Assembly: GCA_964550175.1 (NCBI GenBank)
Contig: CAZJXP010000001.1
Coordinates: forward strand, 424,706-488,705
Length of the DNA stretch: 64,000 nucleotides
Reading direction: 5' to 3'
Origin: an uncultured Methanosarcinales archaeon
Lineage (GTDB): Archaea > Nanobdellota > Nanobdellia > Woesearchaeales > ARS49
Shown: positions 15,768-43,417 of the stretch, in pieces
How positions within the stretch are numbered: the first letter of the stretch is position 1
How the letters are laid out: the number at the start of each line of letters is the position of its first letter
Notes under the pieces: model-generated
Database searches by the model: none
What the model was told of the DNA's origin: nothing
What the model saw: only the letters and a program-made list of their open reading frames with translations
Translations under genes and position numbers: made by a program

Positions 15768-16750
15768 TTCTTGATTGGAAAGCGCTCGGGCTGAAGTGCG
15801 GCATCGAAATCCACCAGCAGCTCGAAGGCAAAAAGCTGTTTTGCTCCTGCCCGACAACGATCCGCGACGACCCCTCCCACTTCACGGTGCACCGCAAGCT
15901 TCGCGCAGTCGCAGGAGAAGCCGGCGAAGTCGACGTTGCGGCCGCGCAGGAAATGCAGAAAGGCAAAACCTTCACCTACGAAGGGTTTGAAGATACGACC
16001 TGCTTGGTCGAGCTCGATGAAGAGCCGCCGCACGACGTGAACGATGACGCGCTCATCACGGCATTGCAGACGTCATTAGTCTTGAAAGCCACGCCGGTCG
16101 ACCAACTCCACCTCATGCGCAAAACCGTCGTAGACGGCAGCAACACGTCCGGTTTCCAACGCACGGGGTTGATTGCGCGCAATGGCACGTTGACGACCGA
16201 GCATGGCACCGTCACCATTCCGACGATTTCCTTGGAAGAGGATGCTTCCCGCATTATCAAGAACAGTCCAACCAACACGCTTTATCGACTCGACCGACTT
16301 GGCATCCCGCTCATCGAAATCGGCACTGGCCCGGAAATAAAGGACCCCGACCAATGCAAGGAAGTCGCTGAAGCGCTCGGCATGATTCTCCGCAGCACCG
16401 GAAGAGTAAAGCGCGGACTCGGCACCATCCGGCAAGACGTGAACGTCAGCATCGCTGGCGGCGTACGCGTCGAGATCAAAGGAGCGCAAGACCTCAAGCT
16501 CTTGCCGACGCTCGTCGCGTACGAAGTATTGCGCCAGAAGACCCTTCTTGAACTGAAAGACGAGCTCGTGAAACGAAAAGCGTCCGTCTCCTCAAAAATA
16601 GAGAACGTCACGCACATTCTCGCGGCCGTCGACAGCGCAGTCATCAAGAGCGCGCTCAGCGCACAAGGGGTCGTGCTCGGCATCACGCTTCCGGGATTTC
16701 ACGGCTTGATTGGCAAGGAAGTCCAACCCGGACGACGGCTCGGAACCTAA
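15764..16750 (+). CDS. gatE: Glu-tRNA(Gln) amidotransferase subunit E, N-terminal piece ending at an in-frame TAA
   Basis: ATGA overlap with gatD. GatB/E-type blocks [12 protein letters not shown], CSCP and [10 protein letters not shown]. Stops at TAA 16748-16750 in the middle of conserved sequence. Confidence 0.85.
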   Translation: [328 protein letters not shown]

Positions 16751-16789
16751 TTTTCCGACCGCGCGAAAGCGCACGCCGGAGTCGGAGGA

Positions 16790-17593
16790 TTGTTCCACTC
16801 AGACGAATTGCCCAAGTACGGCATCACGCAAGGGGCGGTCGACGCGATACGCAAGGCGCTCGGTTGCGACGCGAACGACGGATTCATCATCGTCGCGGAC
16901 AAGGAAGACAAAGCAACGATTGCAATGCACGCAATCATTTCGCGCGCGAACGAAGCGTTCCACGGCGTGCCCAAAGAGGTCCGCAAGGCGAACGACGACG
17001 GCACGACGACGTTTTTGAGAATGATGTCCGGCGCAGCAAGATTGTATCCTGAAACTGACTTGCGCCCAATCACGCTCACGAAAGAATTCCTCGCGAAAAT
17101 CCCGATTCCCGAATTGATCGAAGTGAAAACCTCGCGCTACGAACAGTGGGGACTCGGGCACGACCTTGCCGAACTTGCCGCAAAATCCGAGAACCCTGAA
17201 CTGCTGGAACGCTTTGTCAAACATTACCCCGGAGTCAAGCCGGCCTACATCGCGGAAATACTCTACTCCGCGGCAAAAACCATCAAACGACAGTTCAACA
17301 TCGACATTTCTCCGACTGAGCAGGATTTCGATGCGCTGTTCAGCGCGCTGAACAACAACACCATCTCGAAAGAAAGCGTGCAAGAGATATTGAAGCAAGG
17401 CAAGCCAGTTTCGAGTATCATCAAGAATTATGCCGTCCTGTCGGACAAAGAGCTTCTCGCGGAACTGCAGCACATCGTCGTGGCGAACAAAGGGCTGCCG
17501 TTCAACGCCCTCATCGGCAAGGCGATGGCCAAGCTCCGAGGAAAAGCGTCCGGAGAGAAAATCTCAACCGAGCTCAAAAAGCTCGCTCAATAG
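16790..17593 (+). CDS. gatE: Glu-tRNA(Gln) amidotransferase subunit E, C-terminal piece (same frame as the N-terminal piece)
   Basis: Same frame as 15764. Translation continues directly after the TAA ([26 protein letters not shown]...). The ORF-track start at 16790 is a TTG. Helical and tail domains are present. Confidence 0.8.
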   Translation: [267 protein letters not shown]

Positions 17594-23413: not shown

Positions 23414-23923
23414 TCACGTCGTGTATCTGTGCAAATTAAGGAATCCCGCGATGGTTTTCTTGAATTGCGCGATGTCGGACTTGATTGTCCCCTCGAATCC
23501 GCCCGTCAATGACTTGTAGATGTATCTGTCGTAAATAGCCCGGAAGAAGAGAAAGACCGGCTTCGATTCCCAACGGTCTTGGTAGTCCGTCTGCAGTATT
23601 CCTGACATCGTGATTAATACTGTTCCTTGATTGAGCTTCTGTTTTTTACCTTCAGGGGTTTCGAGCGTGACGTCTTTCAGGTTGCTCATCTGGATCCTGA
23701 ATTTGAGCAGGCTTTTCGCGTAATCCGTCAACTCCTTGCTCGGCGTGAGCTCAAGCTCGACAAACTTCCCCTCGGGCCGGGCGCTTTCGACGTGCTTTGG
23801 CTCGATGCGGAAATAGCCCTTGTCCAGCAGCCATTCGTCAATCAAACGATACAGTTCGGAAACAGAAAAGACCCCTTCGTACTGGATGCGCTCATTGTTC
23901 ACGATAAGATTGTCTTCTGGCAT
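23414..23923 (-). CDS. Hypothetical protein, third gene of a three-paralogue operon
   Basis: 169 aa. Shares GVFS..EL..LI.EWL.DKGY and ...ELELT..K...YAK....I.......V....GKKQKL.QG.V.I..SG.L..DY blocks with the two upstream ORFs. TGATG start/stop overlap. Confidence 0.75.
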   Translation of the reverse strand: MPEDNLIVNNERIQYEGVFSVSELYRLIDEWLLDKGYFRIEPKHVESARPEGKFVELELTPSKELTDYAKSLLKFRIQMSNLKDVTLETPEGKKQKLNQGTVLITMSGILQTDYQDRWESKPVFLFFRAIYDRYIYKSLTGGFEGTIKSDIAQFKKTIAGFLNLHRYTT

Positions 23924-24423
23924 CAGCGCGCCTCAAACTGCAACAAATTACGTATAGCCCGGTGGAGTTTAAAAATGGTTAGTCCGACTTCGTACTTGTA
24001 GACCTTATTTATCTTATTATTGAGAATGTACTTGTGGTAGACCTTTCGGACGGACTGCAAAAAAGAAGTTTTTTCGAAACGCTTCGCGTAGTCCAGCTCG
24101 ACTTCACCTGAAATCCCGATTTTAACTCTGCCTTGCTGCATTTTCTGCTTCTGACCGTCACGGACGACCTCAACATCGTTCATTTCAAGGATAACGATCT
24201 TGATTTCGATAATGAATTTCGCGTACGCATCGACTTTCTTGTCCGCTTTTAGTTCTAATACGAGCTCTGCGCCGTCGCCGCCGACCTTGTTTTCGTAGCC
24301 CGGCTCAAAGACAAAGTATTCCTCATCACCCAAAAAACTTCGTATCAAAATTTGCAGCTGACGCAGGCTGAACACGCCCACATGATGGGTTGATGTTTCC
24401 GGGATAGACTCTTTGATTGGCAT
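23923..24423 (-). CDS. Hypothetical protein, second gene of a three-paralogue operon
   Basis: 166 aa, alignable by eye to the neighbours over its full length. TAATG overlap with the upstream gene. Confidence 0.75.
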   Translation of the reverse strand: MPIKESIPETSTHHVGVFSLRQLQILIRSFLGDEEYFVFEPGYENKVGGDGAELVLELKADKKVDAYAKFIIEIKIVILEMNDVEVVRDGQKQKMQQGRVKIGISGEVELDYAKRFEKTSFLQSVRKVYHKYILNNKINKVYKYEVGLTIFKLHRAIRNLLQFEAR

Positions 24424-25019
24424 TAGGTCATGTCTCGCTTCGGGAAGAACTCATTCGTCTCCTTCTCAGGCAGGAACGTGTCCAACTTGAGGTAGACCTT
24501 GATTGCTTCCTGGAATCGTGAAACGTCCGTAAACAACGCGATCTCGTGGTTCTTGCGCACGTTCTTGAGGAATATCTTGAAGATGAAATCCTTGAAGTGC
24601 GAGCCAATCCAGTGCTTGCTCACGGCCCCTTCCGGATCTTCGGTGAGGTAGCCTGTCAGCGTAACTTCAACCTCTCCCTTATCGGCCTTGAACTTCTTGC
24701 CGTTCATAACGACTTCCACTTCTTTTTGTCCGAGGACATGAAAATCGACATCAATATCATATTGATAGAGTTTCGCGAAGCTTCGCGTGTCTGTTTTTGT
24801 CAGGCGCCATCGCAACGTGATTTCACTACCAAATGAACGCTCGATGTGTTCGTACAGAATCTCCTTGAAATCCTCGCTCGCGCCGCAGTATTTGTTGTCC
24901 AACGCCCACTCGTGCATCAGCTTGTAGAGGTTGCCCCACGAGTAGACATCCTTGTACAGCACCACCATTCGGGCAATCGTATCCCCTGTTCTCCGAAGAG
25001 TTAGCTTGGGCTCGGGCAT
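24423..25019 (-). CDS. Hypothetical protein, first gene of a three-paralogue operon
   Basis: 198 aa, the more divergent paralogue (DVYSWGNLYKLMHEWALDNKY ... GKKFKADKGEVEVTLTGYLTED). An ATTTATAAG box lies about 25 nt upstream. Confidence 0.75.
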   Translation of the reverse strand: MPEPKLTLRRTGDTIARMVVLYKDVYSWGNLYKLMHEWALDNKYCGASEDFKEILYEHIERSFGSEITLRWRLTKTDTRSFAKLYQYDIDVDFHVLGQKEVEVVMNGKKFKADKGEVEVTLTGYLTEDPEGAVSKHWIGSHFKDFIFKIFLKNVRKNHEIALFTDVSRFQEAIKVYLKLDTFLPEKETNEFFPKRDMT

Positions 25020-25097: not shown

Positions 25098-26291
25098 ATG
25101 CTCATCGGCGTTGTGGGAAAGGCTAATGTCGGCAAATCGACCTTCTTCAAATCGATCACTCTGGCTGATGTGCTGATCGCGAACTATCCGTTCGCGACCA
25201 TCGACCCGAACAAGGCGTTCGCGTTCGTCAGAATCGATTGCGTTGACAAGGAATTCAAAGTGCAGTGCAACCCGCGGTTCGGAAGCTGCATCAACCATCA
25301 GCGCTTCGTGCCCGTTGAAGTGATGGACGTTGCGGGATTAGTTCCGGGCGCGCACCTCGGCAAAGGGATGGGGCTTACCTTCCTAGATGACTTGCGACAG
25401 GCGGACGCATTTGTCCACGTTGTTGACATGGCAGGCTCAACAAACGAGAAAGGGGAGCCGGTCGAACTCGGCAGCTACGACCCGGCGAACGACATCCGAT
25501 TCCTTGAAGTCGAACTTAACATGTGGGTGCTCAGCATCATCAAGCGCGGCTGGGAAAAGATTGCGCGAGCCCTACAGCAAGAAAAAGGAACCGCGGTAAA
25601 GGCGTTGGCAAAGCAGCTTTCTGGATTGAACGTCTCCGAAGCGCTCGTCGAAGAGCTGATGAAAAAGCTCAACCTCCCGCTCGACCGGCCGGCAGAATGG
25701 ACCGACGAACAGCTCATCGAGCTTTCGGTGCTCGTGCGCAAGCGCAGCAAGCCCATGATCATCGCGGCCAACAAGATGGACCTCCCGACCGCGAAAGCGA
25801 ACCTGGAACGTATCAAGAAAGAATTCCCCGATCAGTTGATTCTCCCTGTCAGCGCGGAAGCTGAATTGACCTTACGCAGCGCGGCAAAAGGCGGACTGAT
25901 TGACTACATCCCAGGCGACGCCGACTTCACCATCAAAGGAAACCTCAACCCGAAGCAAAAAGAGGCGCTCGAATACATACGCACGAACGTCCTGAAGCAA
26001 TGGGACGGAACGGGCACGCAGAAGATACTGAACGCAGCCGTATTCGACCTTCTGAAATTCATGGCAATCTTCCCGGGCGGAATGAGCAAGCTCGCGGACA
26101 AGGACGGCAACGTGCTGCCGGACTGCTTCTTGCTTCCTCCGGGCTCAACCGCGTTCGGATTCGCCGCGAAAATCCACACGGACTTGGCGGACCACTTCAT
26201 CGCGGCAATGGACGTCAAAACGCGACGGAAGATCGGACGAGAAACGCTCTTGAAGCACCGCGATGTTATCGAGATACTGACTAGTAATTAA
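25098..26291 (+). CDS. Obg-family P-loop GTPase/ATPase (YchF/DRG-like) with C-terminal TGS domain
   Basis: G1 GKANVGKST, G3 DVAGLV, G4 NKMD, and a C-terminal TGS-like segment. Confidence 0.85.
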   Translation: MLIGVVGKANVGKSTFFKSITLADVLIANYPFATIDPNKAFAFVRIDCVDKEFKVQCNPRFGSCINHQRFVPVEVMDVAGLVPGAHLGKGMGLTFLDDLRQADAFVHVVDMAGSTNEKGEPVELGSYDPANDIRFLEVELNMWVLSIIKRGWEKIARALQQEKGTAVKALAKQLSGLNVSEALVEELMKKLNLPLDRPAEWTDEQLIELSVLVRKRSKPMIIAANKMDLPTAKANLERIKKEFPDQLILPVSAEAELTLRSAAKGGLIDYIPGDADFTIKGNLNPKQKEALEYIRTNVLKQWDGTGTQKILNAAVFDLLKFMAIFPGGMSKLADKDGNVLPDCFLLPPGSTAFGFAAKIHTDLADHFIAAMDVKTRRKIGRETLLKHRDVIEILTSN

Positions 26292-26514
26292 TTCTCGTTT
26301 TCTTGTAAGGAGTACGCCACGCTTTGATAATTTCGTGCCAAAGCACAATACTGCAAAGACCGCCAATGAGCGCGCCTTTCCAACTGAGCAACCAAACTCC
26401 CATAATGAATCCGATAGTTGAGAGAATGGCAAATAAGATCATGCAAATGAACGCAGCCCATTCATGCCGTCGCATAAATTCAGAAGAGAATTTGGACATA
26501 GTAATATAATTCAT
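26281..26514 (-). CDS. Small membrane protein (2 TM)
   Basis: 77-aa ORF 11 nt downstream of the GGDEF gene on the same strand. Two hydrophobic helices. Confidence 0.45.
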   Translation of the reverse strand: MNYITMSKFSSEFMRRHEWAAFICMILFAILSTIGFIMGVWLLSWKGALIGGLCSIVLWHEIIKAWRTPYKKTRINY

Positions 26515-26525
26515 TAATTAATTTA

Positions 26526-28034
26526 TTAACTCTTCGCTATCGGCGCGTTCATTTCAATTGTCCCCAAATTCTTGTCTACGATGATGAAACCAGTAACTCT
26601 ATTCTTGCCCAAATGCTTCGACTTGTAGAGCGCCCTATCCGCCTCTTTAATCATGAATTCCGGAGAGACTGACGAATTCATGCACGTGGCGACCCCTAAA
26701 CTAATCGTCGTCTTGCGGTTTGGGAATGCGTGGCCGTCAACTGCCTGACGAACTCGTTCGGCTACTGCGATGGCGTGCTCGGGCTTGGTCTCCGGCAGCA
26801 TGACGACAAACTCTTCACCACCATATCGGCAGCAGCTGTCGATACTTCCCACGGCGTCGCGCAGCACCTTGCCTAATTCTGAAAGCAGCTTGTCCCCCTC
26901 AGGATGACCGTACGTGTCGTTGTAGCTCTTGAAGTTGTCGACGTCAAAAATGATCAGACTGGTAGGACGCTTGAACTTAGCCGCACGAGTCACTTCATTC
27001 TTGAATGTCTCGACGAAATAATGCTTGTTGTACAGATTGGTGAGCTTGTCCGTGACGGCGGTTTCCTGCGCAAGCTTATACCTTGCGGCAGCCGCTAACG
27101 CAACTTCAACACGTTTGCCGAGCGCGAACACGACCTCCTCGAACGCACGCAAATTCGTTTCGGGTTTGCCATACAGCACCAGCATCCCTTTCGTGTTGCC
27201 GTCCCACACGATCGGCACGGCAAGTATGCTGTTCGCGAGCTCATGCGACTGCGACAACTGGCCAAGCATGAAATCATTCCTTACGTCTCCAAGAAACAGC
27301 GGCGTTCGACTGTTACTCACATGGGCCCAAAGCGCGTCTTCCACCGGCTTAGCTGCGGCATTACGCGTCTCCAAGAACGAAAATCGCGCCGAATCATTAC
27401 CGTGGCGGACGCTGCAGTCCTCGATCGGAAACGTCTTCATGCAGAAGTTCAGCGTCGTGTTGAGGATTTTCGGAACGTCGAACGTCGCGTTCACTTGGTT
27501 CAAAAACTCGAACAGCACGTTCAACTGCTGCAACTCCTTGCGGTCTTTCGATCTATCGGAAGCTATTTTCGGCAACGTGACCGCGAACGTCTCCAACAAT
27601 AACTTGATGATGTTGAGCTGGTGCGCTCCTTGCACGGGCAGCTTCGGAATCTCGTCGACAAGCTCGTCCGCGTCAAGCCCGATCAACCGGGCGGCCTTCA
27701 TGGCAGCGTCATCCAGACGCTGGTCGGTGCGGATGCTTTCGACCATCAACGCGCCGACCTTCTTATCATTGATGATAATGGGAACGGAAACAGAATACAA
27801 TCCCGCGTGGCACGAATCTTGGTAAATGCCTGACGCTTTCACCGCCCAATCCTGACGGCACAATGTGCAGAACTGCCCGCCTTTCTTTTCCACTAATGTG
27901 CAGAAGAATGGAAACGTGCCCGACTTGAATACGATCTGGCCTTTCAAGTCAACCGCGACAACGGGCAGTCCAATCGAGGCAGAAAGCCGATCTTGCACCA
28001 ACTGCCACGTCGGGGCATCCACGAGGTCTCGCAT
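26526..28034 (-). CDS. Diguanylate cyclase with PocR-like and GAF-like sensor domains (PocR-GAF-GGDEF)
   Basis: The N-terminal Cys/His pattern FCTLVEKKGGQFCTLCRQ...CHAGLYSVSVPI is PocR-like. A central GAF-like region follows. The GGDEF domain reads TDKLTNLYNKHYF, IIFDVDNFKSYNDTYGHPEGDKLL and RYGGEEFVVMLPE. Confidence 0.9.
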   Translation of the reverse strand: MRDLVDAPTWQLVQDRLSASIGLPVVAVDLKGQIVFKSGTFPFFCTLVEKKGGQFCTLCRQDWAVKASGIYQDSCHAGLYSVSVPIIINDKKVGALMVESIRTDQRLDDAAMKAARLIGLDADELVDEIPKLPVQGAHQLNIIKLLLETFAVTLPKIASDRSKDRKELQQLNVLFEFLNQVNATFDVPKILNTTLNFCMKTFPIEDCSVRHGNDSARFSFLETRNAAAKPVEDALWAHVSNSRTPLFLGDVRNDFMLGQLSQSHELANSILAVPIVWDGNTKGMLVLYGKPETNLRAFEEVVFALGKRVEVALAAAARYKLAQETAVTDKLTNLYNKHYFVETFKNEVTRAAKFKRPTSLIIFDVDNFKSYNDTYGHPEGDKLLSELGKVLRDAVGSIDSCCRYGGEEFVVMLPETKPEHAIAVAERVRQAVDGHAFPNRKTTISLGVATCMNSSVSPEFMIKEADRALYKSKHLGKNRVTGFIIVDKNLGTIEMNAPIAKS

Positions 28035-28079
28035 GGAATAATGTGCAGAACGCTGTTTTAAAAGGATTTAGCGGATGGA

Positions 28080-29015
28080 TTAGCTATCCGAGTCAATCAC
28101 GCCTCGCGCGAGGTCCGTGATGAGCGTTCCCATCGTTTTGAACGTCTCCGCGACGTCCAACAATCCTAATTCTGCGAGCTTTCCGGCTTTTCCGGCGAGC
28201 CCTTCACGTTTGCGGGCGACGCTTTCCGCAAGCGTTCGGTCCGTCGTGAACTGGGCCTTGATTGCGTCAAGATACAATAATTCGAGCGCGGCATAAGTCT
28301 CGCGGACTTGCGTCTGATGCTGTTTGCTCAATTTTCCGCACAGTTTCGCGGCGTTCTTGATCGTGTCGCCGAGATTTTCCAACGTATTTGCGGTCAGCCA
28401 AGAGCCCAAGACTTTATCGTTCGTCAACTGCACTTGCTGCGCCATGATCGGGTCCTTCAAACTACCTTTCAACAAGCGATACAGCAAGAAATACATTCGG
28501 TTCATGTCATAATCACGGAGCACGACGCTTTCCGTCAATGCAGGGTTATCAAGACTTGAGATTCCGTCCTTGAACATCGAGCGCACGGTCATGTCCATTC
28601 TTCGGATGGTTTTCTCAACCGAGACTTCCTTCAGGTTGAGCATGTCCTGCGCAACCAACAGCGTCGGCGTCTGCTCCACAATCTCAAGCGCGGCAAAGTC
28701 GCGAAGCAATCTTCGGATTTCTTTTGCCTTTTCGTGCAGCGTGTCGCCCGTGAACCGCAGCATCGTGTAATTGTTCACGTACGCGCTCGTCAGTTCGCGG
28801 CCGATGGTCTCGATTGTTTTCTTGTCCACATCCAGAGTTTTCTCGCGGACAGTGCTTGTCGCCGTCGTAAGATCCGGTAAGATAACCAGGGCGTGGTCGC
28901 GCGGCTGAAGATAGATAGTGCTTCCTTTGGTCAGCTTATGCTGGTCAAGCCATTCCTTCGGCAAAGACACCGTATGGCTGCTGGGACCGGCTTTTACGAG
29001 CTTACGGACATGCAT
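28080..29015 (-). CDS. AbrB/SpoVT-domain plus PhoU-repeat regulator (archaeal PhoU-type)
   Basis: The N-terminal VRKLVKAGPSSHTVSLPKEWL...GSTIYL is an AbrB-type fold. It is followed by two helical PhoU-like repeats. Confidence 0.7.
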   Translation of the reverse strand: MHVRKLVKAGPSSHTVSLPKEWLDQHKLTKGSTIYLQPRDHALVILPDLTTATSTVREKTLDVDKKTIETIGRELTSAYVNNYTMLRFTGDTLHEKAKEIRRLLRDFAALEIVEQTPTLLVAQDMLNLKEVSVEKTIRRMDMTVRSMFKDGISSLDNPALTESVVLRDYDMNRMYFLLYRLLKGSLKDPIMAQQVQLTNDKVLGSWLTANTLENLGDTIKNAAKLCGKLSKQHQTQVRETYAALELLYLDAIKAQFTTDRTLAESVARKREGLAGKAGKLAELGLLDVAETFKTMGTLITDLARGVIDSDS

Positions 29016-29040
29016 GTTTCGTCACCTTTTTATCAATGAA

Positions 29041-29079
29041 TAACGTACTAAACGTATTCTTAAGATAAGAAGTACGTTA
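29041..29079. promoter_or_regulatory. 9-bp perfect inverted repeat in the regulator promoter region
   Basis: TAACGTACT (29041-29049) and AGTACGTTA (29071-29079) are separated by 21 nt, 26-64 nt upstream of the ATG at 29015. An extra AACGTA half-site lies at 29051-29056. Confidence 0.4.
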
Positions 29080-29169
29080 AAGCTATATTAAAGTTGCGCC
29101 TAATATAGTTTATCCTTATGCAAACGCATGGGGATAACGCGAGAGAAAAAATGAAACACACAATACAGG

Positions 29170-29258
29170 CGGCGAGATAGGCTCGCAACGCACATTGCCT
29201 ATCCGCTGATTGGACGACCCTGAGTGCACCACCGCTAAACGGGTCGCCTACCTTTTTT
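29170..29258 (+). ncRNA. Candidate structured RNA module 1 (two hairpins plus T tract)
   Basis: 12-bp stem CGGCG(A)GATAGGC/GCCTATCCGCTG (29170-29208). 6-bp stem CGACCC/GGGTCG (29215-29246). Then CCTACCTTTTTTCATTTTATTTTT. Confidence 0.3.
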
Positions 29259-29277
29259 CATTTTATTTTTCGCACTA

Positions 29278-29401
29278 GCGCACATGCACAATGTGCGTCA
29301 CAATCGTTGGCGCGAAAGGCCGAAAGGCCTGGTCGCAGACCGTTGCCGGATAGCGGCCACGGTTCCTACCTCACCGGGCGGAAGCACTCCGCCCTCCTTT
29401 T
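29278..29401 (+). ncRNA. Candidate structured RNA module 2 (four hairpins, the last followed by a T tract)
   Basis: Hairpins at 29278-29298 (GCGCACAT/ATGTGCGT), 29312-29336 (GGCC-GAAA-GGCC core), 29338-29365 and 29376-29394 (GGGCGGA-AGCAC-TCCGCCC), then TCCTTTTAT. Confidence 0.3.
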
Positions 29402-29421
29402 ATGCTCACCAACCCCCCCTC

Positions 29422-29461
29422 GGCGCGAATAGCGAACTCATTCTCCTTCGCGCCTCTTTTT
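29422..29461 (+). terminator. Hairpin plus T tract (module 3)
   Basis: GGCGCGAA / TTCGCGCC 8-bp stem with a 17-nt loop, followed by TCTTTTT. Confidence 0.35.
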
Positions 29462-29537
29462 ATCCTCCTCCTCGCTTACGCCCTCCTGTTCGACCGGGCG
29501 AATTTCGTCGAGACCCTCTATAATTTGGTGCATCGAC

Positions 29538-30650
29538 ATGCTCATTACTGACGCTTCGCTGCTCGCGAAGTTCGATGCATTCATCAAGAAAATAACTCCA
29601 TCCGATGTTCTTGGATTATTTCATGACGCGGACTCGGACGGAATCTCCTCAGGCGCGCTAGTCGCGACGGCCATTCAAAGGATACGAGGAAGGCTGCCTG
29701 ATGTCCGTCTATTCCCAGCAGGCGCGTCGCACACGATCCGCGACGAAGACGTCGCGAACCTCCGAAAAGCCGGCGTGACAAAGTTCATCTCCTGTGATGT
29801 CGCGCTCGACAACATGCCCGAGGTTGCAGAAAAAATAGCAAGTTTTGCTGACGTGCTGATTATCGACCACCATGCGTTGTACAAGCCATTCAAAGCAAAA
29901 AATATCCTCCTCATCAAGCCCCAACTCTACACCGATCTTCCGAAGCCGAGCCAATACTGCACGAGCAAGATGGCCTATGACCTCTTTTCGCGGCACGTCA
30001 ACCTCGAGGACAAAGACTGGCTTGCTGTGGCTGGATGTATCTCGGACATCGCGGTCGAGCCCTGGAAGGAATGGGTCAAATCAGTCTTCAAAAAATACAA
30101 CCTGCCGATGAACAAGGATTTGTTCAAGACAAAACTTGGGCAAGTCGGAATCTACATCAACGACACGGCATCGTATGACACAAATGAAATTCACAAGGCA
30201 TTTACCGCGGCCGTCGAGGCAAAAACGTTCAAGGAGCTGCTCGACTCACCAATCAAAAAGTACCACGCAATCATCGAAAAGGAAATCATCAAGTGGACCA
30301 AGCACATCAAAACAAAAGGAGAATGGCATCCCGAACTGAAGCTCGTATTCTACCAAGTCACGCCAAAATATTCGGTAAAGAGCGCCGTGACGACGATTCT
30401 CGGACTCAAATACAAAAAAGAAATCATCGTCGTTTCCGCGCCTGAGCACAACAAAGTCACAATATCCCTGCGGTGCAACGACCAACATGTCGCGGTCAAC
30501 AATCTCCTTGTTGAAGCGCTCAAAGGATTGCCGGACGCGTCCGGCGGCGGACACATCCCGGCAGCCGGCGGAAGATGCAACGTGAAAGACTATCCTACTG
30601 TAAAAGACAACATCATGCGATTGCTACGAGAAGGATTTACCGGACTTTAG
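29538..30650 (+). CDS. DHH/DHHA1 family phosphoesterase (NrnA/RecJ-like)
   Basis: Motif I DADSDG, motif II CDV, motif III LIIDHH, and DHHA1 motif GGGHIPAAGG. 370 aa. Confidence 0.8.
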   Translation: MLITDASLLAKFDAFIKKITPSDVLGLFHDADSDGISSGALVATAIQRIRGRLPDVRLFPAGASHTIRDEDVANLRKAGVTKFISCDVALDNMPEVAEKIASFADVLIIDHHALYKPFKAKNILLIKPQLYTDLPKPSQYCTSKMAYDLFSRHVNLEDKDWLAVAGCISDIAVEPWKEWVKSVFKKYNLPMNKDLFKTKLGQVGIYINDTASYDTNEIHKAFTAAVEAKTFKELLDSPIKKYHAIIEKEIIKWTKHIKTKGEWHPELKLVFYQVTPKYSVKSAVTTILGLKYKKEIIVVSAPEHNKVTISLRCNDQHVAVNNLLVEALKGLPDASGGGHIPAAGGRCNVKDYPTVKDNIMRLLREGFTGL

Positions 30651-31014
30651 GTTTCTTGCTCATCACGCTTGGCACGTCAACCATGTACTTGCCTTCGGCG
30701 AGTTTGAAGATCAACGGTTCGTCGCGGAACAATTTCGCAAGGTCAAGCTCGTATTTGCCGGGCGCAACCATGCGCACGCTTTCAAAATCAAGAATGACCG
30801 GCTCTTCCGGATCTTGCCCGAGCATGAGAAAAACATCCTGCTCCATACGGAACTTCTGCTCCGGAGTCAAATTCAACGCGACTTCTTTCTTTGCGGCGTC
30901 CAAACGAGATTGCTTGATGTAAAAGAACAGTTTTCCGCCGCAGACGCAGCCCGACAACAATTCTTTCGAACCGTCCGGATAGAACGTGCTGCAACGAACG
31001 CATTGGTGCGGCAT
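30637..31014 (-). CDS. Zn-ribbon protein (DUF2072/OapC-like)
   Basis: N-terminal CVRC...CVCGG ribbon. Last gene of a GTPase/DUF2073/Zn-ribbon triad. The family name is recalled from haloarchaeal origin-associated (Oap) annotation. Confidence 0.6.
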   Translation of the reverse strand: MPHQCVRCSTFYPDGSKELLSGCVCGGKLFFYIKQSRLDAAKKEVALNLTPEQKFRMEQDVFLMLGQDPEEPVILDFESVRMVAPGKYELDLAKLFRDEPLIFKLAEGKYMVDVPSVMSKKPKVR

Positions 31015-31024
31015 CAGAACCCCA

Positions 31025-31393
31025 TTATCGTTTTGCCTTCTTCTTGTCGCTGGTGAATAATTCGATCTTGTTCGGGTCCTTCTTTATTTTCTTGACAATG
31101 CTCGCCGGGCCGACAATCGTCAACCCAGTGCGGTTGCCAAGAATGAAACTCGCGACATTGTCCAAGAAAGCCCCGCTGTTACTCGGATTGATGACGGCCA
31201 ACTCGATGCCGCGGAACTCCTTGTTAATCTCTTCCATTGTGGCTTGAATCAGCTCGGCTTCCTCCTCCTTCTTCAATCTGCCCTGCAGCATCACGATCTT
31301 GTTCTGCTTCGCGACATTGAGAATCTTGCGAATCCTGCCGACGCTCGTGAGTCCGTCGATTTCGCTGTAGGGCATCAGTTGTATCGTTACCAT
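31025..31393 (-). CDS. DUF2073/OapB-like protein
   Basis: 122 aa, the middle gene of the triad, 2 nt after the GTPase stop. Assigned by context and remembered family pattern. Confidence 0.55.
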   Translation of the reverse strand: MVTIQLMPYSEIDGLTSVGRIRKILNVAKQNKIVMLQGRLKKEEEAELIQATMEEINKEFRGIELAVINPSNSGAFLDNVASFILGNRTGLTIVGPASIVKKIKKDPNKIELFTSDKKKAKR

Positions 31394-31395
31394 GT

Positions 31396-32019
31396 TTACC
31401 TCTTTGCGAGCTTAAACAGGTGCTCATAGAACTCGTCCATGTTCTTGCCTGTTCGCGCAGACACTCCTATCACACCATACTGGGGGAACGCCGTCTCGAC
31501 GCGCTTCATCTTCGAACGCTTGAGGTCGACCTTGTTCGCGACCACGAGCACAGGAATGTCCCGCGCCTGCAGATTGCCGAGAATCGTGACGTTGACCTGG
31601 CTGAACGGGTCTTGTGTGGAGTCGAGCACGACGATGACCGTGTCGACTTCATCGAGCCACTTGATGCTATCAATAACTCCCTTCGTGGCTTCGCGAGCGC
31701 GTTTCTTTGCCGTTTTCTCGTTCATGCCGTGCTTCATGAAATCTTCGAAATCAATCCGCGTGGCGATGCCCGGCGTATCAATGAGATTAAATTGCAACTC
31801 CTTGCCATCTTTGCTCTTGATGACGACGCTTTCCTTCATCTGGATTTCGCGCGTCTCGTGAGGAATCTGAGAAACCGAGCCTAATTCTGTGCCGAGCCAG
31901 TCAAGGCAGATGCGGTTGGCTAACGTGGTTTTGCCGGAGTTCGGAGGACCATAGAGGCCGAGCTTGAAATTCTTGCGCAGTCCCCACCCCGAAAAAAGTT
32001 TCTTCAACCAATCAAACAT
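31396..32019 (-). CDS. Small GTP-binding protein (OapA-like, Era/Arf-like P-loop)
   Basis: Start moved to ATG 32019 (MFDWLKKLF). G1 GPPNSGKTT, G3 DTPG, G4 NKVD. Confidence 0.8.
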   Translation of the reverse strand: MFDWLKKLFSGWGLRKNFKLGLYGPPNSGKTTLANRICLDWLGTELGSVSQIPHETREIQMKESVVIKSKDGKELQFNLIDTPGIATRIDFEDFMKHGMNEKTAKKRAREATKGVIDSIKWLDEVDTVIVVLDSTQDPFSQVNVTILGNLQARDIPVLVVANKVDLKRSKMKRVETAFPQYGVIGVSARTGKNMDEFYEHLFKLAKR

Positions 32020-32150
32020 GCAAACACCACTTTCAGTCGAAGAAGCCGGAGCGTCCTTTTTATAGATTTCTATTCTGCATAGTGAACTGAGATTCAATCA
32101 CGAACGATTTGAAAAAAGAGAATAAAAAAGACAAAAAAAAGCAGTTAGAC

Positions 32151-32402
32151 TTACGCTCGAGCCATCTTTGCGCGAGAAACGTGGCCGTTCTTGTCAACGA
32201 AGTACAAGTAACCGACACTCTTCTTGACGCCGACCTTAGCGACCTTTTCGGGCTTGCTCTTCGCGCCCTTCTTTCGGCCACGGGCCATCTTCGCTCGAGA
32301 GACGTCTCCGCTCTTGTCGACGAAGTACAGGAATCCGCCCTGCTTCTTAACACCCACTTTTGCAACCAATTCTGCCATGGAAAACCCTCCTTTTTTGTTC
32401 AA
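32151..32402 (-). CDS. Small basic protein made of two tandem ~35-aa repeats
   Basis: VAKVGVKKQGGFLYFVDKSGDVSRAKMARG and VAKVGVKKSVGYLYFVDKNGHVSRAKMARA are joined by a Lys-rich linker. The repeat is also visible at the DNA level. Confidence 0.65.
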   Translation of the reverse strand: MNKKGGFSMAELVAKVGVKKQGGFLYFVDKSGDVSRAKMARGRKKGAKSKPEKVAKVGVKKSVGYLYFVDKNGHVSRAKMARA

Positions 32403-32767: not shown

Positions 32768-34273
32768 ATGACGAAAGGGATGGTGGTGTCGGGCGGTTTC
32801 GGCGGGATTCTCATCAGGACGAAGCGCGACAAACCGTTCGAGCTCGGCGAGCTCCTTATCACGGAAACGCCCGCGGGCAAGATTCTGCTGCACGTGTACG
32901 ATCTTGCGTACGGCTCGCAACTGAGCCAACAACATCTCGAACTCGTTTCAGGACTGAAGCTTGAGGAAGACGAAAGTCTCGGGCTCATGGACCCGCACCT
33001 GCGCAATTATGTTTTGGCGAAGGCGCAAGGGCTCGTCACGATCGCCGGAAAAAACGCAACGGCCTGCAAAAGCCTTCCGTCGATGTTTGCGCCCGTGCGC
33101 GCGATAACTCCTGAAGACATCACCTTTCTTACGGCGCCGCCGACGCCCTTGTTCGTCGGCAACCTGCGGTCGGGCAGCACCGTGCTCGACGTTCCCATCT
33201 ATCTCAACGGCAAAGATGTGCTGAGCCATCACGTGTTAATTTCAGCGACAACCGGCAAAGGAAAAAGCAACCTCGCGTACGCCATGCTGTGGGACCTGTG
33301 CGGAAAAGACTATGCTGGGATGCTTGTGCTTGATCCGCACGACGAATATTATGGACGCGCAAAGCTCGGGCTGAAAGACCACGCCAACCGCGACAAAGTA
33401 AGTTATTACTCCCCTGACCCTGTGCCCGGCGGACGGACGCTCAAGCTCAATCTTTCCCTGGTGCAACCGCACCATTTCGACGGCGTGATGCCCTGGAGCG
33501 ATGCCCAGCGCGAATGCCTCACAGCATATTGGAAACGCCACCCGAACGACTGGATCACGCAGATTCTCACGGGTGAAAAGATCGACGGATTCATGGAAGG
33601 GACGCTCGCGGTCGTCAAACGAAGATTGCAGCAATTGCTCGACCTGAACGTCATCGATGAAAAATTGACGGCGTCAGGAGTGTTTGATTTGCATGCTGGA
33701 CAAACGACCGTGAGCGACATCGTGCGCGACCTTGAGAATGCAAAAATCGTCATCATCGACACGAGCTCGTTTGCCGGCCCGGTCGAAATCCTTATCGGAA
33801 GCTTAATCGCGTCGGAAGCGTTCCAACGCTACAAACGCTGCAAGCAAGACGGCAGCCTGAAGGACAAGCCCGTCATCAGTATCGTGCTCGAGGAAGCGCC
33901 ACGAGTATTGGGCAAGGATGCGCTTGAACGCGGCGGAAACATCTTCAGCACGCTCGCACGCGAAGGCCGGAAGTTCAAGATCGGACTTGTCGCAATCACG
34001 CAACTGCCTTCGCTCATCCCGCGCGACATCCTCGCGAACATAAACACCAAGATCATCCTCGGAACGGAGATGAAGCCAGAGCGGCAGGCGCTCATCGAAA
34101 GCGCGGCGCAGGATTTGTCCGAAGACGACCGCACGATCGCGAGCCTGAACAAAGGGGAAGCCCTCATCACGAGCACGTTCGTCGCGTTCGCGACTCCGAT
34201 AAAGATTCCGCTTTTCGAGACGATTGCGCAAATTCCAAAAACGCCGCGCTCGTTCGCGGGGGTAAACCAATGA
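32768..34273 (+). CDS. HerA-like (DUF87) hexameric ATPase
   Basis: N-terminal barrel-like region, Walker [11 protein letters not shown], Walker B-like [10 protein letters not shown]. 501 aa. Confidence 0.8.
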
Positions 34274-35466
34274 AATTTGCCCATGTCGCGGACGTTCATT
34301 TGGGAGGCTGGCGCGACCCCATCATGCGCGAACTGAACACGCGGGCATTCGTGACGTGCATCGACCGAATCATCGCGGAACAAGTCGACTTTGTGCTGAT
34401 TGCCGGCGACCTGTTCAACACCAGCATGCCCTCGGTCGACTGCCTCAAAGTGGCTGTGCACAAGTTCAACGAGCTCAAACGCGCAAATATTCCCATCTAT
34501 CTCATTCCAGGATCCCATGACTTCAGCCCGAGCGGAAAGAGCATGCTTGACGTGCTCGAAGAAGCCGGGCTGTTCATCAACGTGGTCAAGGGCGACGTTG
34601 TCGACGGAAAGCTCAACCTGAGATTCACGACCGACCCGAAGACCGGAGCGAAAATAACCGGGATGCTCGGCAAACGCGGCGGACTTGACAAGCACTACTA
34701 TGACGACCTGAACCGCGAACCGCTCGAGCGAGAGGCCGGATTCCGCATATTCATGTTCCACTGCGCGCTCCAAGAGGCAAAGCCGAAAGAGCTCGCGCAA
34801 ATGGAAGCGATGAGCGTTTCGTTGTTTCCGAAAGGATTCGACTACTACGCGGGCGGCCACGTGCACGTCGTAGAACGCATCGATCTCGGGACGCACAAGA
34901 ACATCATCTATCCTGGGCCGGTGTTCCCGAACAGCAATGGCGAGCTGGAGAAACTCAAGCACGGAACGTTCGTGCTGTACGACAACGGCACAATCAAGCA
35001 TATCCCAATCGAACTGCATCCGGTCGTGAGCATACGCCTCGATGCGACGGGGTTGACTCCGTCTGTTGCTGAGCAAAAACTGCGTGACCTGCTGGCCGTA
35101 AGCGTTGTTGGAGCTATCGTCACGTTGCACGTGTCCGGCACGCTCAGTGCAGGAAAACCAACCGACATCAACATGAATGACCTCGTGCAAAACACGATGG
35201 ATCGCGGAGCACGCATCGTGCTGAAGAGCACCTCCGCCCTGATGAGCGAGGCGTTTGAACAGATTTCTGTCGCAAAACAATCGGTTGAGGAGATTGAGCT
35301 CGCGCTCATCCGCGAGCACGCCAAAGGCACGGTGTTCGACATCGACCGCGAAAAAAACTTGTTTTCATCGTTAATGCAGCTGTTTTCGGCGGAGAAAGAC
35401 GAAGGGGAAAAATCGGCGGACTACGAGAAGCGACTCACTTCTGATGCGCAGCGCGTGTTCGGGTAG
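34270..35466 (+). CDS. mre11: Mre11/SbcD-family DNA repair nuclease
   Basis: Phosphoesterase motifs ADVHLG, AGDLFN, PGSHD and GGHVH. ATGA overlap with the herA-like gene. Confidence 0.75.
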
Positions 35467-36325
35467 GCCAGTCCTCGCGAATCGGCTTGCCTAATTTTGC
35501 TGTCCAGCGCTTGACTAAATGGACATAAGATTCCTTTCTCAGCCAAGTTTTGCCGTGCAGACATTTCGTCTCGACGCCATCCTTGATGAACTCTACGAAC
35601 AGCTTGATTTTGCCATCTTTTCGCTGCTTAGCGTACACCCGCTGGCCAATCTTCATCACGTCGCCAAACAACAGCACTTCCAACGGAGACTCGTTCTTGC
35701 GCATGCGCTTGAAGAATTCGTGGCGCAAATGCTCGAACTTGCTCACGATGATTTTTCGCTCCTTGTACACAAACAACATGACAATGAGGAATATCGCGAA
35801 CAGCACGCCAAAAATGATGTCGAACTGGCGGATCCACGTGATCATCTTCGGGATGAATCGCCCAAACCAAAAGCCCATCAACACCATGAGCGGCACCCAG
35901 ACCAATGCGGCAATCGTGTCCCAAATGAGGAACTCTTTCAACGGCATCTTTGTCGCGCCGGCCGCAATCGGGAAAAACACCCTGATGCCTGACAAGAAAC
36001 GCGAAAAGAATATCGTCTTGCTCCCGTGACGCTCGAAATACGATTCCACCTTCTTGAATTTCTCTTCCGAAAGCAAACGCTTGAACAACTTGCCGCCATG
36101 ATGCCCGATGCCGTAGCCAATCAGATCACCAAGAATAACTGAAATCAGCGACACGACAATCGCGCCGAAAATGTTCATGTACCCGAGCGACGCGACCCAG
36201 CCGGCCGCAAGCATCACGATTTCTTCCGGAAACGGAATGCCAATGCTTCCAATCAGAATCAAGATGACAATCGCGAAGTAGGACACTTCCGTAAGATAAT
36301 TGACAAAGAACTCGAGGAGCGCCAT
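35435..36325 (-). CDS. DedA/VTT-domain membrane protein with a ~105-aa C-terminal soluble extension
   Basis: Start moved to ATG 36325 (MALLEFFVNY), which shares 1 nt with the asnS stop. DedA blocks FPEEIVMLAAGW and FERHGSKTIFFSRFLSGIRVFFPIAAG. Confidence 0.75.
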   Translation of the reverse strand: MALLEFFVNYLTEVSYFAIVILILIGSIGIPFPEEIVMLAAGWVASLGYMNIFGAIVVSLISVILGDLIGYGIGHHGGKLFKRLLSEEKFKKVESYFERHGSKTIFFSRFLSGIRVFFPIAAGATKMPLKEFLIWDTIAALVWVPLMVLMGFWFGRFIPKMITWIRQFDIIFGVLFAIFLIVMLFVYKERKIIVSKFEHLRHEFFKRMRKNESPLEVLLFGDVMKIGQRVYAKQRKDGKIKLFVEFIKDGVETKCLHGKTWLRKESYVHLVKRWTAKLGKPIREDWPTRTRAAHQK

Positions 36326-37614
36326 TAGGGCGTCGAACGCTTGATTGTTCGCGGGAACGGAATCGCGTCGCGGATGCTTTCGAGCTTGCAGACCCAACGG
36401 ACCACACGCTCAATGCCGAGACCGAATCCGGAGTGAGGGACGCTACCGAACCTTCGAAGGTCGAGGTACCAGTTATAGTGCTCGACCTTTTCGCCAGATT
36501 TCTTCAATTTGTTAATGAGGATGTTGACGTCCGTCTCTCGCTCACTGCTACCAATGATTTCGCCGTATCCTTCCGGCGCGAGGACGTCGCAGCATTTGAC
36601 GACGCGAGGGTCGTTCGGGTCGTCCTTCATGTAGAAAGCCTTGACTTCCTTCGGATAGCCCGTGACCCAGAGCGGCTTGTCAAAATGTTTCACGAGCGCT
36701 TCCTCTTCAACTGTTCTGAGGTCCTTGCCCCAAGGAATCTCGATGCCGTCCTTGTGCAGCATCTCGACGGCTTCCGTGTAAGTAATTCTTGGGAACGGCG
36801 GCTTAATCTTTTCCAAATCGCGGTAATCACGACCTAAGATGGTAAGTTCTTCCCGACAATGCTTCGCGACGTGCTGACAAATTGCGGTGATCAATCCTTG
36901 CTCCAACGCAATGAGCCCTTCGAAATCTTGCCAAGCCGTCTCGCCTTCCAAATGCCAATACTCAGTCAAATGACGATTGGTCTTGCTCGGCTCAGCACGG
37001 AAGCTCGGCGTGAGCGCCCAGACCTTTTCGAGCGAAAAAATCATCGCCTCAAGATACAACTGCGCGCTCTGGCTCAGGAACACGTCCTCGCCGAAATAGT
37101 CAACATGAAAGAGGGTCGAGCCTCCTTCGCATGAGCTTCCCGTGATGATCGGCGGAGTTGTTTCAAAATAACCCGCGCTGTCAAAATAATCCCGTACTGC
37201 CTTCAACACCTGGGCTTTCACTTTCCAGACAGCCGTCAATTCCCGGCTACGAATCCACAAGTGGCGCTTGTCGAGCAAGTCCTCAGTAGATTGGTCCTTC
37301 GTGATGGGGAAACGCTCGGCGCGGTGGACGACGTTCAGATGGTCGACCTCGACCTCAAAGCCCGTCGGAGCGCGCTTGTCCTCTTTCAGCGTACCGGAAA
37401 GCTCGATTGCGCTTTCGATAAGGATTGTTTCAGCCGCTGCCCAGATTTCGGGCGTGACCTTGTCCTTCTTGATGACGCACTGGATGATGTTAGTACGGTC
37501 TCTCAAGACGACGAACGCGAAAGCGTTGCTCTTTCGTTCTCGATAGACCCAGCCGCGCAAATGCACCTTGCCTGAGGCTTTCTTGATTGCATCAGCGACC
37601 GTGATGAATTCCAT
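36325..37614 (-). CDS. asnS: Asparaginyl-tRNA synthetase
   Basis: Class IIb. OB-fold N-domain, motif 2 FRAEPSKTNRHLTEYWHLEGE, motif 3 GFGLGIERVV, C-terminal IPFPRTIKRSTP. Confidence 0.8.
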   Translation of the reverse strand: MEFITVADAIKKASGKVHLRGWVYRERKSNAFAFVVLRDRTNIIQCVIKKDKVTPEIWAAAETILIESAIELSGTLKEDKRAPTGFEVEVDHLNVVHRAERFPITKDQSTEDLLDKRHLWIRSRELTAVWKVKAQVLKAVRDYFDSAGYFETTPPIITGSSCEGGSTLFHVDYFGEDVFLSQSAQLYLEAMIFSLEKVWALTPSFRAEPSKTNRHLTEYWHLEGETAWQDFEGLIALEQGLITAICQHVAKHCREELTILGRDYRDLEKIKPPFPRITYTEAVEMLHKDGIEIPWGKDLRTVEEEALVKHFDKPLWVTGYPKEVKAFYMKDDPNDPRVVKCCDVLAPEGYGEIIGSSERETDVNILINKLKKSGEKVEHYNWYLDLRRFGSVPHSGFGLGIERVVRWVCKLESIRDAIPFPRTIKRSTP

Positions 37615-40985: not shown

Positions 40986-40986
40986 C

Positions 40987-41595: not shown

Positions 41596-41598
41596 CCC

Positions 41599-42153: not shown

Positions 42154-42155
42154 CC

Positions 42156-42761: not shown

Positions 42762-42888
42762 TTCTAGTCAGAGTAAACTTTTTACCGCCACGTTTGGTAT
42801 AGTCGTTACCTTTAGAATTCTTGTTAGGATAAAACGAACGACTCAAAATCTGCAGGGGAGAGCAACTTAAACAACAGCGGACTAACTC

Positions 42889-43338: not shown

Positions 43339-43417
43339 CGGAATTTTTATATACCGTGATGCCAGAATGCGGTTACGAGCTAGTTAAACTTATGTTACTA
43401 CAAGCGAGGAAAAAAGG

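Follow-up and report, generated by a model that had tools for sequence, protein, structure and literature searches.

A predicted PocR-GAF-GGDEF diguanylate cyclase in the chromosome of a Woesearchaeota (DPANN) archaeon

We analysed a stretch of 64,000 nt of contig CAZJXP010000001.1 (below, the window), the host of which has the NCBI lineage Archaea; Nanobdellati; Candidatus Woesearchaeota. On the minus strand, at 26526..28034, the window carries an open reading frame (ORF) with an ATG start. It encodes a soluble protein of 502 aa with a PocR sensor domain, a GAF domain and a GGDEF catalytic domain; matches in Pfam, NCBIfam and PDB as well as an AlphaFold2 (AF2) model point to a diguanylate cyclase, i.e. 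an enzyme making 3',5'-cyclic di-GMP (c-di-GMP). Judging from sequence comparisons, we consider it likely that this gene codes for a native, vertically inherited, cytoplasmic and signal-regulated diguanylate cyclase of a Woesearchaeota (DPANN) archaeon. The domain composition, the catalytic residues, the fold, the archaeal residence, the purifying selection and the deep positional conservation of the gene are directly supported by the data described below.

The PocR domain (aa 3-154; 27573..28028, minus strand, as are all parts of the gene) scored 83.3 bits with the Pfam model PF10114, the gathering cutoff being 23.9. The GAF domain (aa 189-313; 27096..27470) was found with two models, GAF_2 (PF13185, aa 218-294, 43.6 bits versus a cutoff of 28.6) and GAF (PF01590, aa 189-313, 28.3 bits versus 22.4), and it was also seen in the AF2 secondary structure and in Foldseek matches. 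The GGDEF domain (aa 326-479; 26598..27059) covered model positions 1-161 out of 161 in PF00990 with 145.2 bits (cutoff 23.8, E 1.9e-42) and scored 166.3 bits with the NCBIfam model TIGR00254 (cutoff 37.4). Thus, the Pfam search proposed in a first-pass annotation of this DNA, one made from the letters alone, recovered all three domains above their gathering thresholds, and the PocR-GAF-GGDEF architecture read there from the 502-aa ORF stands. All the peptides quoted in that annotation are present in the protein: FCTLVEKKGGQFCTLCRQ (aa 44-61), CHAGLYSVSVPI (aa 75-86), TDKLTNLYNKHYF (aa 328-340), IIFDVDNFKSYNDTYGHPEGDKLL (aa 361-384) and RYGGEEFVVMLPE (aa 403-415). In PDB the best sequence matches were PleD, WspR and further diguanylate cyclases. 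No transmembrane segment was found in the cyclase, the maximal Kyte-Doolittle (KD) hydropathy over 19 residues being 1.36.

The ATG is preceded by a 45-nt spacer (28035..28079, minus strand) which follows a PhoU-type gene and holds a TATA-like element, TTTTAAAA, at 28056-28063, 22-29 nt upstream of the start codon. By analogy with general archaeal promoter geometry, this location suggests that the cyclase gene has a candidate promoter of its own and a leaderless or nearly leaderless mRNA.

In the alignment with PleD (1W25) the GGEEF active-site motif (aa 405-409; 26808-26822, minus strand) falls on the GGEEF of PleD. N372 and D381 occupy the places of N335 and D344, which contact guanine in PleD; D364 aligns with the metal ligand D327, E407 with E370 and R403 with R366. 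Together with the profile scores, such agreement goes far beyond chance. We observed that D364, D366, N372, D381, R403 and GGEEF are invariant in 65 out of 65 archaeal family members; D381 is Asp in all of them and is replaced by Ser in three non-archaeal hits of the same search. The active-site motif and the two guanine-contacting positions are canonical, as had been claimed at first pass, and the Asp-to-Ser switch of Hypr-type enzymes is absent at D381. In a six-frame motif scan this GGEEF was the sole GG[DE]EF of the window.

The sequence RAID, forming the inhibitory site (I-site) of PleD, corresponds to GSID in the cyclase (aa 396-399); hence there is no RxxD, in agreement with what had been noticed earlier. 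The Arg of the I-site is replaced in 12 out of 12 close relatives (by Gly in 11 and by Ala in one), and in a divergent branch of the family the site reads P-x-x-A/S; among non-archaeal hits of the same search 51 of 54 keep Arg at the first I-site position. With no RxxD I-site, the output of the cyclase would not be limited by allosteric product inhibition; the limit would have to come from the sensor, from expression or from degradation. Another peculiarity is a lineage-specific C-terminal tail, FIIVDKNLGTIE (aa 483-494; 26553..26588, minus strand), recognized in the family alignment. It lies outside the Pfam GGDEF domain and is modelled partly as a strand; its motif, F-I-I-V-D-K-N-L-G-x-I-D/E, was present in 47 of the 65 archaeal members and in none of 55 other hits. 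By every criterion of sequence and fold that we tested, the cyclase is an ordinary member of the GGDEF family, and the traits that distinguish it, the lack of the I-site and the tail, are minor.

An AF2 model built from a 24-sequence family alignment had a mean predicted local distance difference test (pLDDT) score of 89, with ~90 in the GGDEF region. In this model an alpha/beta PocR domain is followed by a 45-residue helix (residues 137-181), the GAF domain, a 33-residue helix (295-327) and the GGDEF domain. The latter superposes on 3IGN with a root mean square deviation of 1.4 Å (TM score 0.92) and on the WspR and DgcB domains at 1.7-2.9 Å. The top whole-chain matches in Foldseek were the phytochrome-activated cyclase IsPadC (E 4e-24) and Dcsbis (2e-18), which suggests, by analogy, a parallel dimer with a register-shift mechanism. 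No solved PocR structure emerged among the top structural matches. The Cys/His cluster spotted at first pass (C45, C56, C59, C75 and H76) occupies columns conserved in 58-72 out of 73 unrelated PocR-domain proteins and kept also in the close cyclase family; it is the general signature of the PocR domain, FC...C..C...CHxG. PocR domains, as a passage in PMC13602510 (citing Anantharaman and Aravind 2005) has it, are thought to bind small hydrocarbon derivatives, e.g. 1,2-propanediol and perhaps methanol, the mechanism being unresolved.

We infer that the cyclase dimerizes in parallel through its long linker helices, since this is the established behaviour of such linker-regulated sensor enzymes. 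A ligand, or a redox or metal signal, would be perceived by the N-terminal PocR domain and possibly also by the GAF domain; it would shift the register of the helical linkers, so that two GGDEF half-sites would be brought together. Each half-site would bind one GTP, N372 and D381 reading the guanine and D364 and E407 holding Mg2+; the paired half-sites would then condense two GTP into 3',5'-cyclic di-GMP.

A search with the N-terminal 322 residues against 1.84 billion representatives produced 62 matches with E-value at or below 1e-10, ~50 of which were collinear proteins of 460-525 aa (family size, ~50 clusters, counted at 50% identity). Homologues with the same architecture reach down to ~30% identity. 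The nearest cyclase homologues with a named source are labelled Candidatus Woesearchaeota, Nanoarchaeota or Nanoarchaeia, and we found the GGDEF gene amid archaeal genes at 13 loci of different genomes (related loci are designated below by L and a number). In the relatives the following block is repeated: HerA-Mre11, OapA-position GTPase-OapB-OapC, AbrB-PhoU, DHH-DHHA1, GGDEF, YchF-related GTPase and three small ORFs. In a neighbour-joining (NJ) tree computed from BLOSUM62 distances the archaeal domains formed one cluster, from which only P0053, an outlier that was reassigned, was missing; the divergent branch lay within this cluster.

This branch consists of proteins of ~440 aa (family B), GGDEF-only by Pfam, encoded on contigs carrying eRF1, L37ae and prefoldin genes. 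We considered whether they make up a second independent archaeal GGDEF family. They align with residues 4-494 of the query at ~30% identity, they share the tail, and their GGDEF gene is again located beside the YchF-related GTPase gene and three small ORFs. As the end-to-end alignment, the tail and the slot all match the query, family B is a divergent branch of the same family with a decayed PocR signature. Local duplication or fragmentation of the GGDEF gene has also occurred in the family: in L018 (6153-9662) GGDEF proteins of 237 aa and 328 aa flank a DHH gene, and in L012 a second GGDEF gene (897-2336, 479 aa) is situated 7.7 kb from the PocR-GGDEF gene, beside an MCM gene.

We were unable to name a bacterial donor from the GGDEF domain tree, where NJ support was weak and most hits came with no taxonomy. 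The cyclase gene belongs to a lineage-wide, vertically inherited family that keeps its genomic position, and it does not represent an isolated import from a recent donor that could be traced.

To characterize the host chromosome we scanned ~60 ORFs of the window with Pfam and NCBIfam. Genes of archaeal type are those for GatD, GatE, deoxyhypusine synthase, Cdc48, OapB/OapC, HerA-Mre11 and a Nip7-like PUA protein; aMBF1 scored above its equivalog cutoff (116.5 bits versus 110), and an RFC-like AAA+ clamp-loader subunit and several archaeal-type aminoacyl-tRNA synthetases are encoded as well. Of the neighbours listed at first pass, GatD/E, deoxyhypusine synthase, Cdc48, aMBF1 and the RFC-like protein held. 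FlaI and FlaJ fared worse: the FlaI/TadA-like T2SSE ATPase scored 124.7 bits, well below the FlaI cutoff of 550, and the FlaJ candidate had no profile match. On the evidence of these genes the window belongs to an archaeal chromosome. A protein identical to the cyclase is encoded on a contig of 969,452 bp, a length that would roughly match that of an entire DPANN genome.

Assemblies of two other sequencing runs in Logan contain the cyclase gene with its flanks. A 21-kb Logan contig (L001) aligned over 14,426 nt with 99.993% identity and one mismatch, spanning both gene junctions; the other Logan match was 2,895 nt long at 100%. The single mismatch in the 14,426 aligned bases lies in gatE (15764-17593, plus strand), which in the window is split by an in-frame TAA (codon 16748-16750), the codon in L001 being GAA (Glu); the TAA is explained by an error of sequencing or of the consensus or, alternatively, by a nonsense variant that segregates in the population. 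Codon usage of the cyclase gene correlated with that of the pooled host genes (r = 0.85), and both this value and the GC content at third codon positions (GC3, 0.68) are unremarkable. Its tetranucleotide usage fell on the 28th percentile of sliding windows; the continuity check suggested at first pass thus put the gene within the host range and gave no sign of a chimera.

Across four species-representative genomes with GC content of 47-55% the orthologues were 74-80% identical and had the same gene order. Pairwise dN/dS values among four orthologues were 0.07-0.14 (approximate values, as dS was near saturation) and no frameshifts or stop codons were seen in the cyclase orthologues; the gene is under strong purifying selection. 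Three loci with Woesearchaeota-type gene order and 52-91% protein identity to the window, L004 (DATILO010000051.1), L005 (CAYHVU010000006.1) and L006 (CAYIEN010000007.1), have public labels of another kind, one 'Candidatus Binatia bacterium' and two 'uncultured Methanosarcinales archaeon'. These are probably mis-binned or mis-classified contigs of metagenome-assembled genomes (MAGs); the 'Binatia'-labelled contig has the same archaeal neighbours and, therefore, it is the label that is in error.

The most constant neighbour of the family is a gene for a YchF-related GTPase (25098..26291, plus strand; NCBIfam PRK09602, 536.7 bits versus a cutoff of 387), convergent with the cyclase gene in the window. 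It adjoins the GGDEF gene in the window and in L003, L004, L006, L010, L013 and L015-L018. On the other side, directly upstream of the cyclase gene and on the same strand (28080..29015, minus), there is a gene for a putative regulator, an AbrB/MazE-type DNA-binding domain fused to a PhoU domain (Pfam PhoU 35 bits; MazE_antitoxin 21.4 bits, slightly under the cutoff). It neighbours the cyclase gene in the window as well as in L003-L006, L011, L012, L017 and L018. Constant as these two neighbours are, no evidence ties either of them to the nucleotide.

Directly downstream of the cyclase gene, a 77-aa ORF (26281..26514, minus strand) with two predicted transmembrane segments (maximal KD 2.55) was called in the window and also in L001. 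It is not a conserved part of the locus, as the GGDEF gene of L003 ends 16 bp before the GTPase gene. Past the GTPase gene, three tandem small ORFs of 169, 166 and 198 aa (23414..25019, minus strand) have no significant Pfam match; orthologous or equivalent triplets follow the YchF-related GTPase gene in L003, L015, L016, L017 and L018. The triplet is a conserved uncharacterized protein set of the lineage and a part of the GGDEF/YchF-GTPase block.

Further away, the genes for OapC, OapB and a small GTPase in the OapA position (30637..32097, minus strand; Pfam OapC 82 bits, OapB 72 bits, MMR_HSR1) and those for HerA-Mre11 (32768-35466; Pfam HerA and Metallophos) belong to the same conserved block, and their order is repeated in L006, L011, L012, L013, L017 and L018. 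Between them lies an 83-aa, very basic ORF (32151-32402, minus strand) made of two ~40-aa repeats (VAKVGVKKxxG[FY]LYFVDKxGxVSRAKMAR), which at the DNA level form a 99-nt direct repeat with 74% identity; related loci, too, have small ORFs at this place, between HerA and the OapA-position GTPase. Its product may be a small nucleic-acid-binding protein.

The 520-bp spacer between the divergent PhoU-type and DHH genes (29016-29537) is conserved in L003, L005 and L006. It has a palindrome, GAATAACGTAC...ACGTATTC, beside the start of the PhoU gene. At ~29150-29290 a non-coding block with a run of T at its end is conserved, and a hydrophobic ORF of 49 aa (29402-29551), also conserved, overlaps the DHH start. 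We considered a structured RNA here. No Rfam match to the spacer was seen even at E at or below 1, and the 3' part is better explained by the conserved 49-aa ORF with its third-position variation.

Two class-II tRNA synthetase genes of the Asp/Asn/Lys type (36325-37614 and 38985-40346, both on the minus strand) are located ~1.4 kb apart, alongside gatD/gatE. Their products are ~30-33% identical to each other (cross-hits), and the pair fits an AspRS together with an AsnRS-like or a non-discriminating enzyme. A pilus-like or secretion locus occupies 40404-47823 (plus strand). It codes for three tandem membrane proteins with no profile match (193, 202 and 184 aa), the 758-aa FlaI/TadA-like ATPase (43418-45694), of which the first ~295 residues match nothing, and a 709-aa polytopic membrane protein with no Pfam or NCBIfam match. 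The most deviant tetranucleotide usage of the window was observed at 40-42.5 kb.

The search for partners of c-di-GMP covered the window and, around related genes, flanking DNA of at most 10 kb. Neither EAL, HD-GYP, PilZ nor MshEN was found by Pfam among the ~60 ORFs of the window, their motifs were absent from its real reading frames in a six-frame scan, and the same families were missing from the Pfam gene tables of loci L010-L019. This agrees with the first-pass annotation, which had seen no EAL, HD-GYP or PilZ domain in the 64 kb. The N-terminus of the FlaI/TadA-like ATPase was considered as an MshEN-type receptor and rejected, as it has no Pfam match and no MshEN motif. Rfam scans for the c-di-GMP-I and c-di-GMP-II riboswitches were also negative; the sole RNAs recovered were tRNAs in the window, and tRNAs and 5S rRNA in ten related loci (143 kb). 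Given that no EAL, HD-GYP, PilZ, MshEN or riboswitch was found in the DNA scanned, any downstream pathway would have to be non-canonical.

The sole nearby enzyme that could plausibly cut a cyclic dinucleotide is a stand-alone DHH-DHHA1 phosphoesterase of 370 aa (29538..30650, plus strand; Pfam DHH 34.2 bits, DHHA1 30.7 bits). Could the cyclase and this protein form a minimal synthesis/degradation pair, with DHH-DHHA1 cutting c-di-GMP or pGpG in place of EAL or HD-GYP? Such an arrangement would be analogous to stand-alone DHH-DHHA1 phosphodiesterases and to GdpP, a GGDEF-DHH/DHHA1 fusion. The DHH gene is at most two genes away from the GGDEF gene in 9 of the 13 loci; it lies co-directional and directly upstream of it in L013 (5-bp gap), L017 (25 bp) and L004, is co-directional and nearly abutting also in L011, and in L018 is placed between two GGDEF genes. 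The DHH motif (D110, H112) and the GGGH motif (G337-G338-H339) are invariant in 36 family members. The family was seen only under DPANN, Woesearchaeota and Nanoarchaeota labels (the relatives of the window protein being labelled as those of the cyclase are, with 'DPANN group archaeon' in addition), save for P0268 with its mis-binned 'Binatia' label.

The profile search favours another function. The family profile is far nearer to P. furiosus RecJ (2e-23), M. jannaschii RecJ2 (1e-21) and GAN (2e-18) than to PAP phosphatase (1e-9), TmPDE (3e-6) and GdpP (5e-4), and the best NCBIfam match, though far below its cutoff, is RecJ_archaeal. The protein is most likely a RecJ/GAN-like nuclease by sequence, and we downgraded it from the obvious missing phosphodiesterase. 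Its adjacency to the GGDEF gene may be passive, because the entire block of 12 genes is syntenic, including the replication and repair genes (OapABC, HerA-Mre11 and, in L012, MCM). Furthermore, four GGDEF loci have no DHH gene, and the most distant DHH member stands apart from any GGDEF gene. On balance, the pairing seems unlikely.

A wider version of this idea, which we hold to be doubtful, is that Woesearchaeota run a self-contained non-canonical c-di-GMP pathway, in which the cyclase lacking the I-site would be the source, the RecJ-like DHH-DHHA1 protein the remover, and an unrecognized receptor would complete the set, all within one conserved block. Candidates for the receptor would be the AbrB-PhoU regulator, the YchF-type GTPase or a partner of the C-terminal tail. 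If this were true, the location beside oapABC/HerA-Mre11 could couple the signal to replication or to host-cell attachment.

It is also conceivable, with a rather low probability, that the intact GGDEF domain is not a c-di-GMP cyclase at all. It could make another product (3',3'-cGAMP, c-di-AMP or linear pppGpG) or its role could be to bind GTP or to interact with other proteins, as in the YybT/GdpP type and further non-canonical GGDEF proteins. The lack of known c-di-GMP turnover or receptor components nearby, the conserved C-terminal tail unique to the family and the fact that c-di-GMP has never been detected in archaea (PMC10249747) would all agree with that. On the other hand, the absence of the Hypr-type switch, with D381 invariant in the 65 archaeal members, argues against another product. 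A degenerate GGDEF domain, moreover, usually loses GG[DE]EF or the metal ligands, which here are invariant under strong purifying selection.

That the gene is a functionless remnant of an old horizontal transfer, kept by chance, is very improbable; although enzyme partners are missing from the small window, the dN/dS values are low (0.07-0.14), the catalytic residues are invariant in members as low as 30% identical, and the gene is kept in a genome whose longest contig is 0.97 Mb, a reduced DPANN genome of the kind that would be expected to shed dispensable genes. An assembly chimera or mis-binned bacterial DNA, with the cyclase only seemingly among archaeal genes, would suit the overwhelmingly bacterial distribution of GGDEF proteins and the 'Binatia' label of one close homologue, and is almost certainly wrong given the independent Logan assemblies (14,426 nt at 99.993% and 2,895 nt at 100%), the codon, GC3 and tetranucleotide usage inside the host range, the archaeal neighbours of the 'Binatia' contig and the 13 loci with the GGDEF gene among archaeal genes.

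Several considerations weigh against a native, vertically inherited diguanylate cyclase, the reading that we prefer. Among GGDEF proteins whose motifs are intact, some have no activity or yield other products. The known degrading enzyme, receptor and riboswitch are all lacking in the DNA scanned, and an orphan cyclase would be unusual. Bootstrap support for a single origin was weak (18% for strict archaeal monophyly, 78% for near-monophyly), so that the argument for a single ancient gain with vertical inheritance thereafter relies chiefly on collinearity, the tail and the position. Finally, there are no enzymatic data for any archaeal GGDEF protein, and c-di-GMP has been detected in no archaeon studied (PMC8646023, PMC10249747); in particular, neither c-di-GMP nor pGpG was detected in Haloferax or Sulfolobus (Braun et al. 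2021, PMC8646023).

The first-pass statement that c-di-GMP signalling is essentially bacterial agrees with current reviews, one of which, from 2023, describes the cyclases as almost exclusively bacterial (PMC10249747). It needs a qualification, since GGDEF hits in DPANN and Asgard archaea are already in print: more than 300 archaeal BLAST hits have been mentioned, many of them from these two groups (PMC8646023). Romling (2022, PMC10086821) remarked that archaeal GGDEF proteins 'need to be confirmed in archaeal contigs', and in a groundwater study diguanylate cyclase genes were counted, and not analysed, in MAGs of ultra-small prokaryotes (PMC9938205). The phrase 'archaeal diguanylate cyclase' was not found in the literature searched; public annotation already names these proteins diguanylate cyclases. 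The mere existence of archaeal GGDEF proteins is, then, not new; they have been mentioned in passing and never analysed or assayed.

Among known systems, PleD (Caulobacter) and WspR (Pseudomonas) share with the cyclase the full GGDEF domain, the GGEEF A-site, the metal ligands and the guanine-contacting Asn and Asp; further features in common with canonical GGDEF cyclases are the Arg that precedes GGEEF and a K/R pair in the last helix. Identity to PleD is ~36% over 160 aa. The input domains differ, PocR-GAF here and receiver domains in PleD and WspR, and unlike canonical cyclases the protein has GSID for RxxD, an extra conserved tail and an archaeal host. IsPadC (PAS-GAF-PHY-GGDEF, 5LLW) and Dcsbis/PA2771 (GAF-GGDEF, 4ZMU) also have a GAF-type sensor connected by a long helix to the GGDEF domain; identity to them is only 16-24%, and the cyclase has no bilin-binding or PHY module, its first sensor being PocR. 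PocR-GAF-GGDEF proteins from outside the archaeal family (e.g. P0071-P0073) have the same Pfam domain types in the same order. They are much longer (694-745 aa); only their GAF-GGDEF parts align well, at 36-40% identity, the PocR parts being 24-30% identical over ~95 aa, and the NJ tree does not place them in the archaeal cluster. We saw no evidence of a recent en-bloc transfer.

GdpP/YybT, a c-di-AMP phosphodiesterase with a PAS domain, a degenerate GGDEF domain and DHH/DHHA1, and TmPDE/TM1595 are comparable in that GGDEF is associated with DHH-DHHA1, here as recurrent neighbours. In contrast to GdpP, the GGDEF domain of the cyclase is catalytically intact and resides on a polypeptide separate from DHH, and the DHH protein of the window is much closer to archaeal RecJ/GAN than to either GdpP or TmPDE. 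DgcA of Dictyostelium, which is said to produce a secreted morphogen, reportedly sets a precedent for a GGDEF enzyme that functions outside Bacteria and in the absence of the partner domains usual there. DgcA is eukaryotic and differs from the archaeal cyclase in domain of life, architecture and biology.

What is unusual here is not the enzyme type; it is the residence of the gene and its firm rooting as a conserved, selected and positionally fixed gene of a reduced DPANN lineage. The locus supplies the confirmation in an archaeal contig called for in PMC10086821. Should the enzyme be active, its product would have to be degraded and received by components that are encoded elsewhere in the genome or belong to unknown types. 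One could speculate, by analogy with the switch between motile and attached states that c-di-GMP controls in bacteria, that attachment of an episymbiotic-type DPANN archaeon to its host would be regulated in a similar way. The main value of the locus is that of a concrete and well-validated test case for archaeal c-di-GMP signalling: the question of whether such signalling exists in Archaea can be taken to the bench with a defined enzyme.

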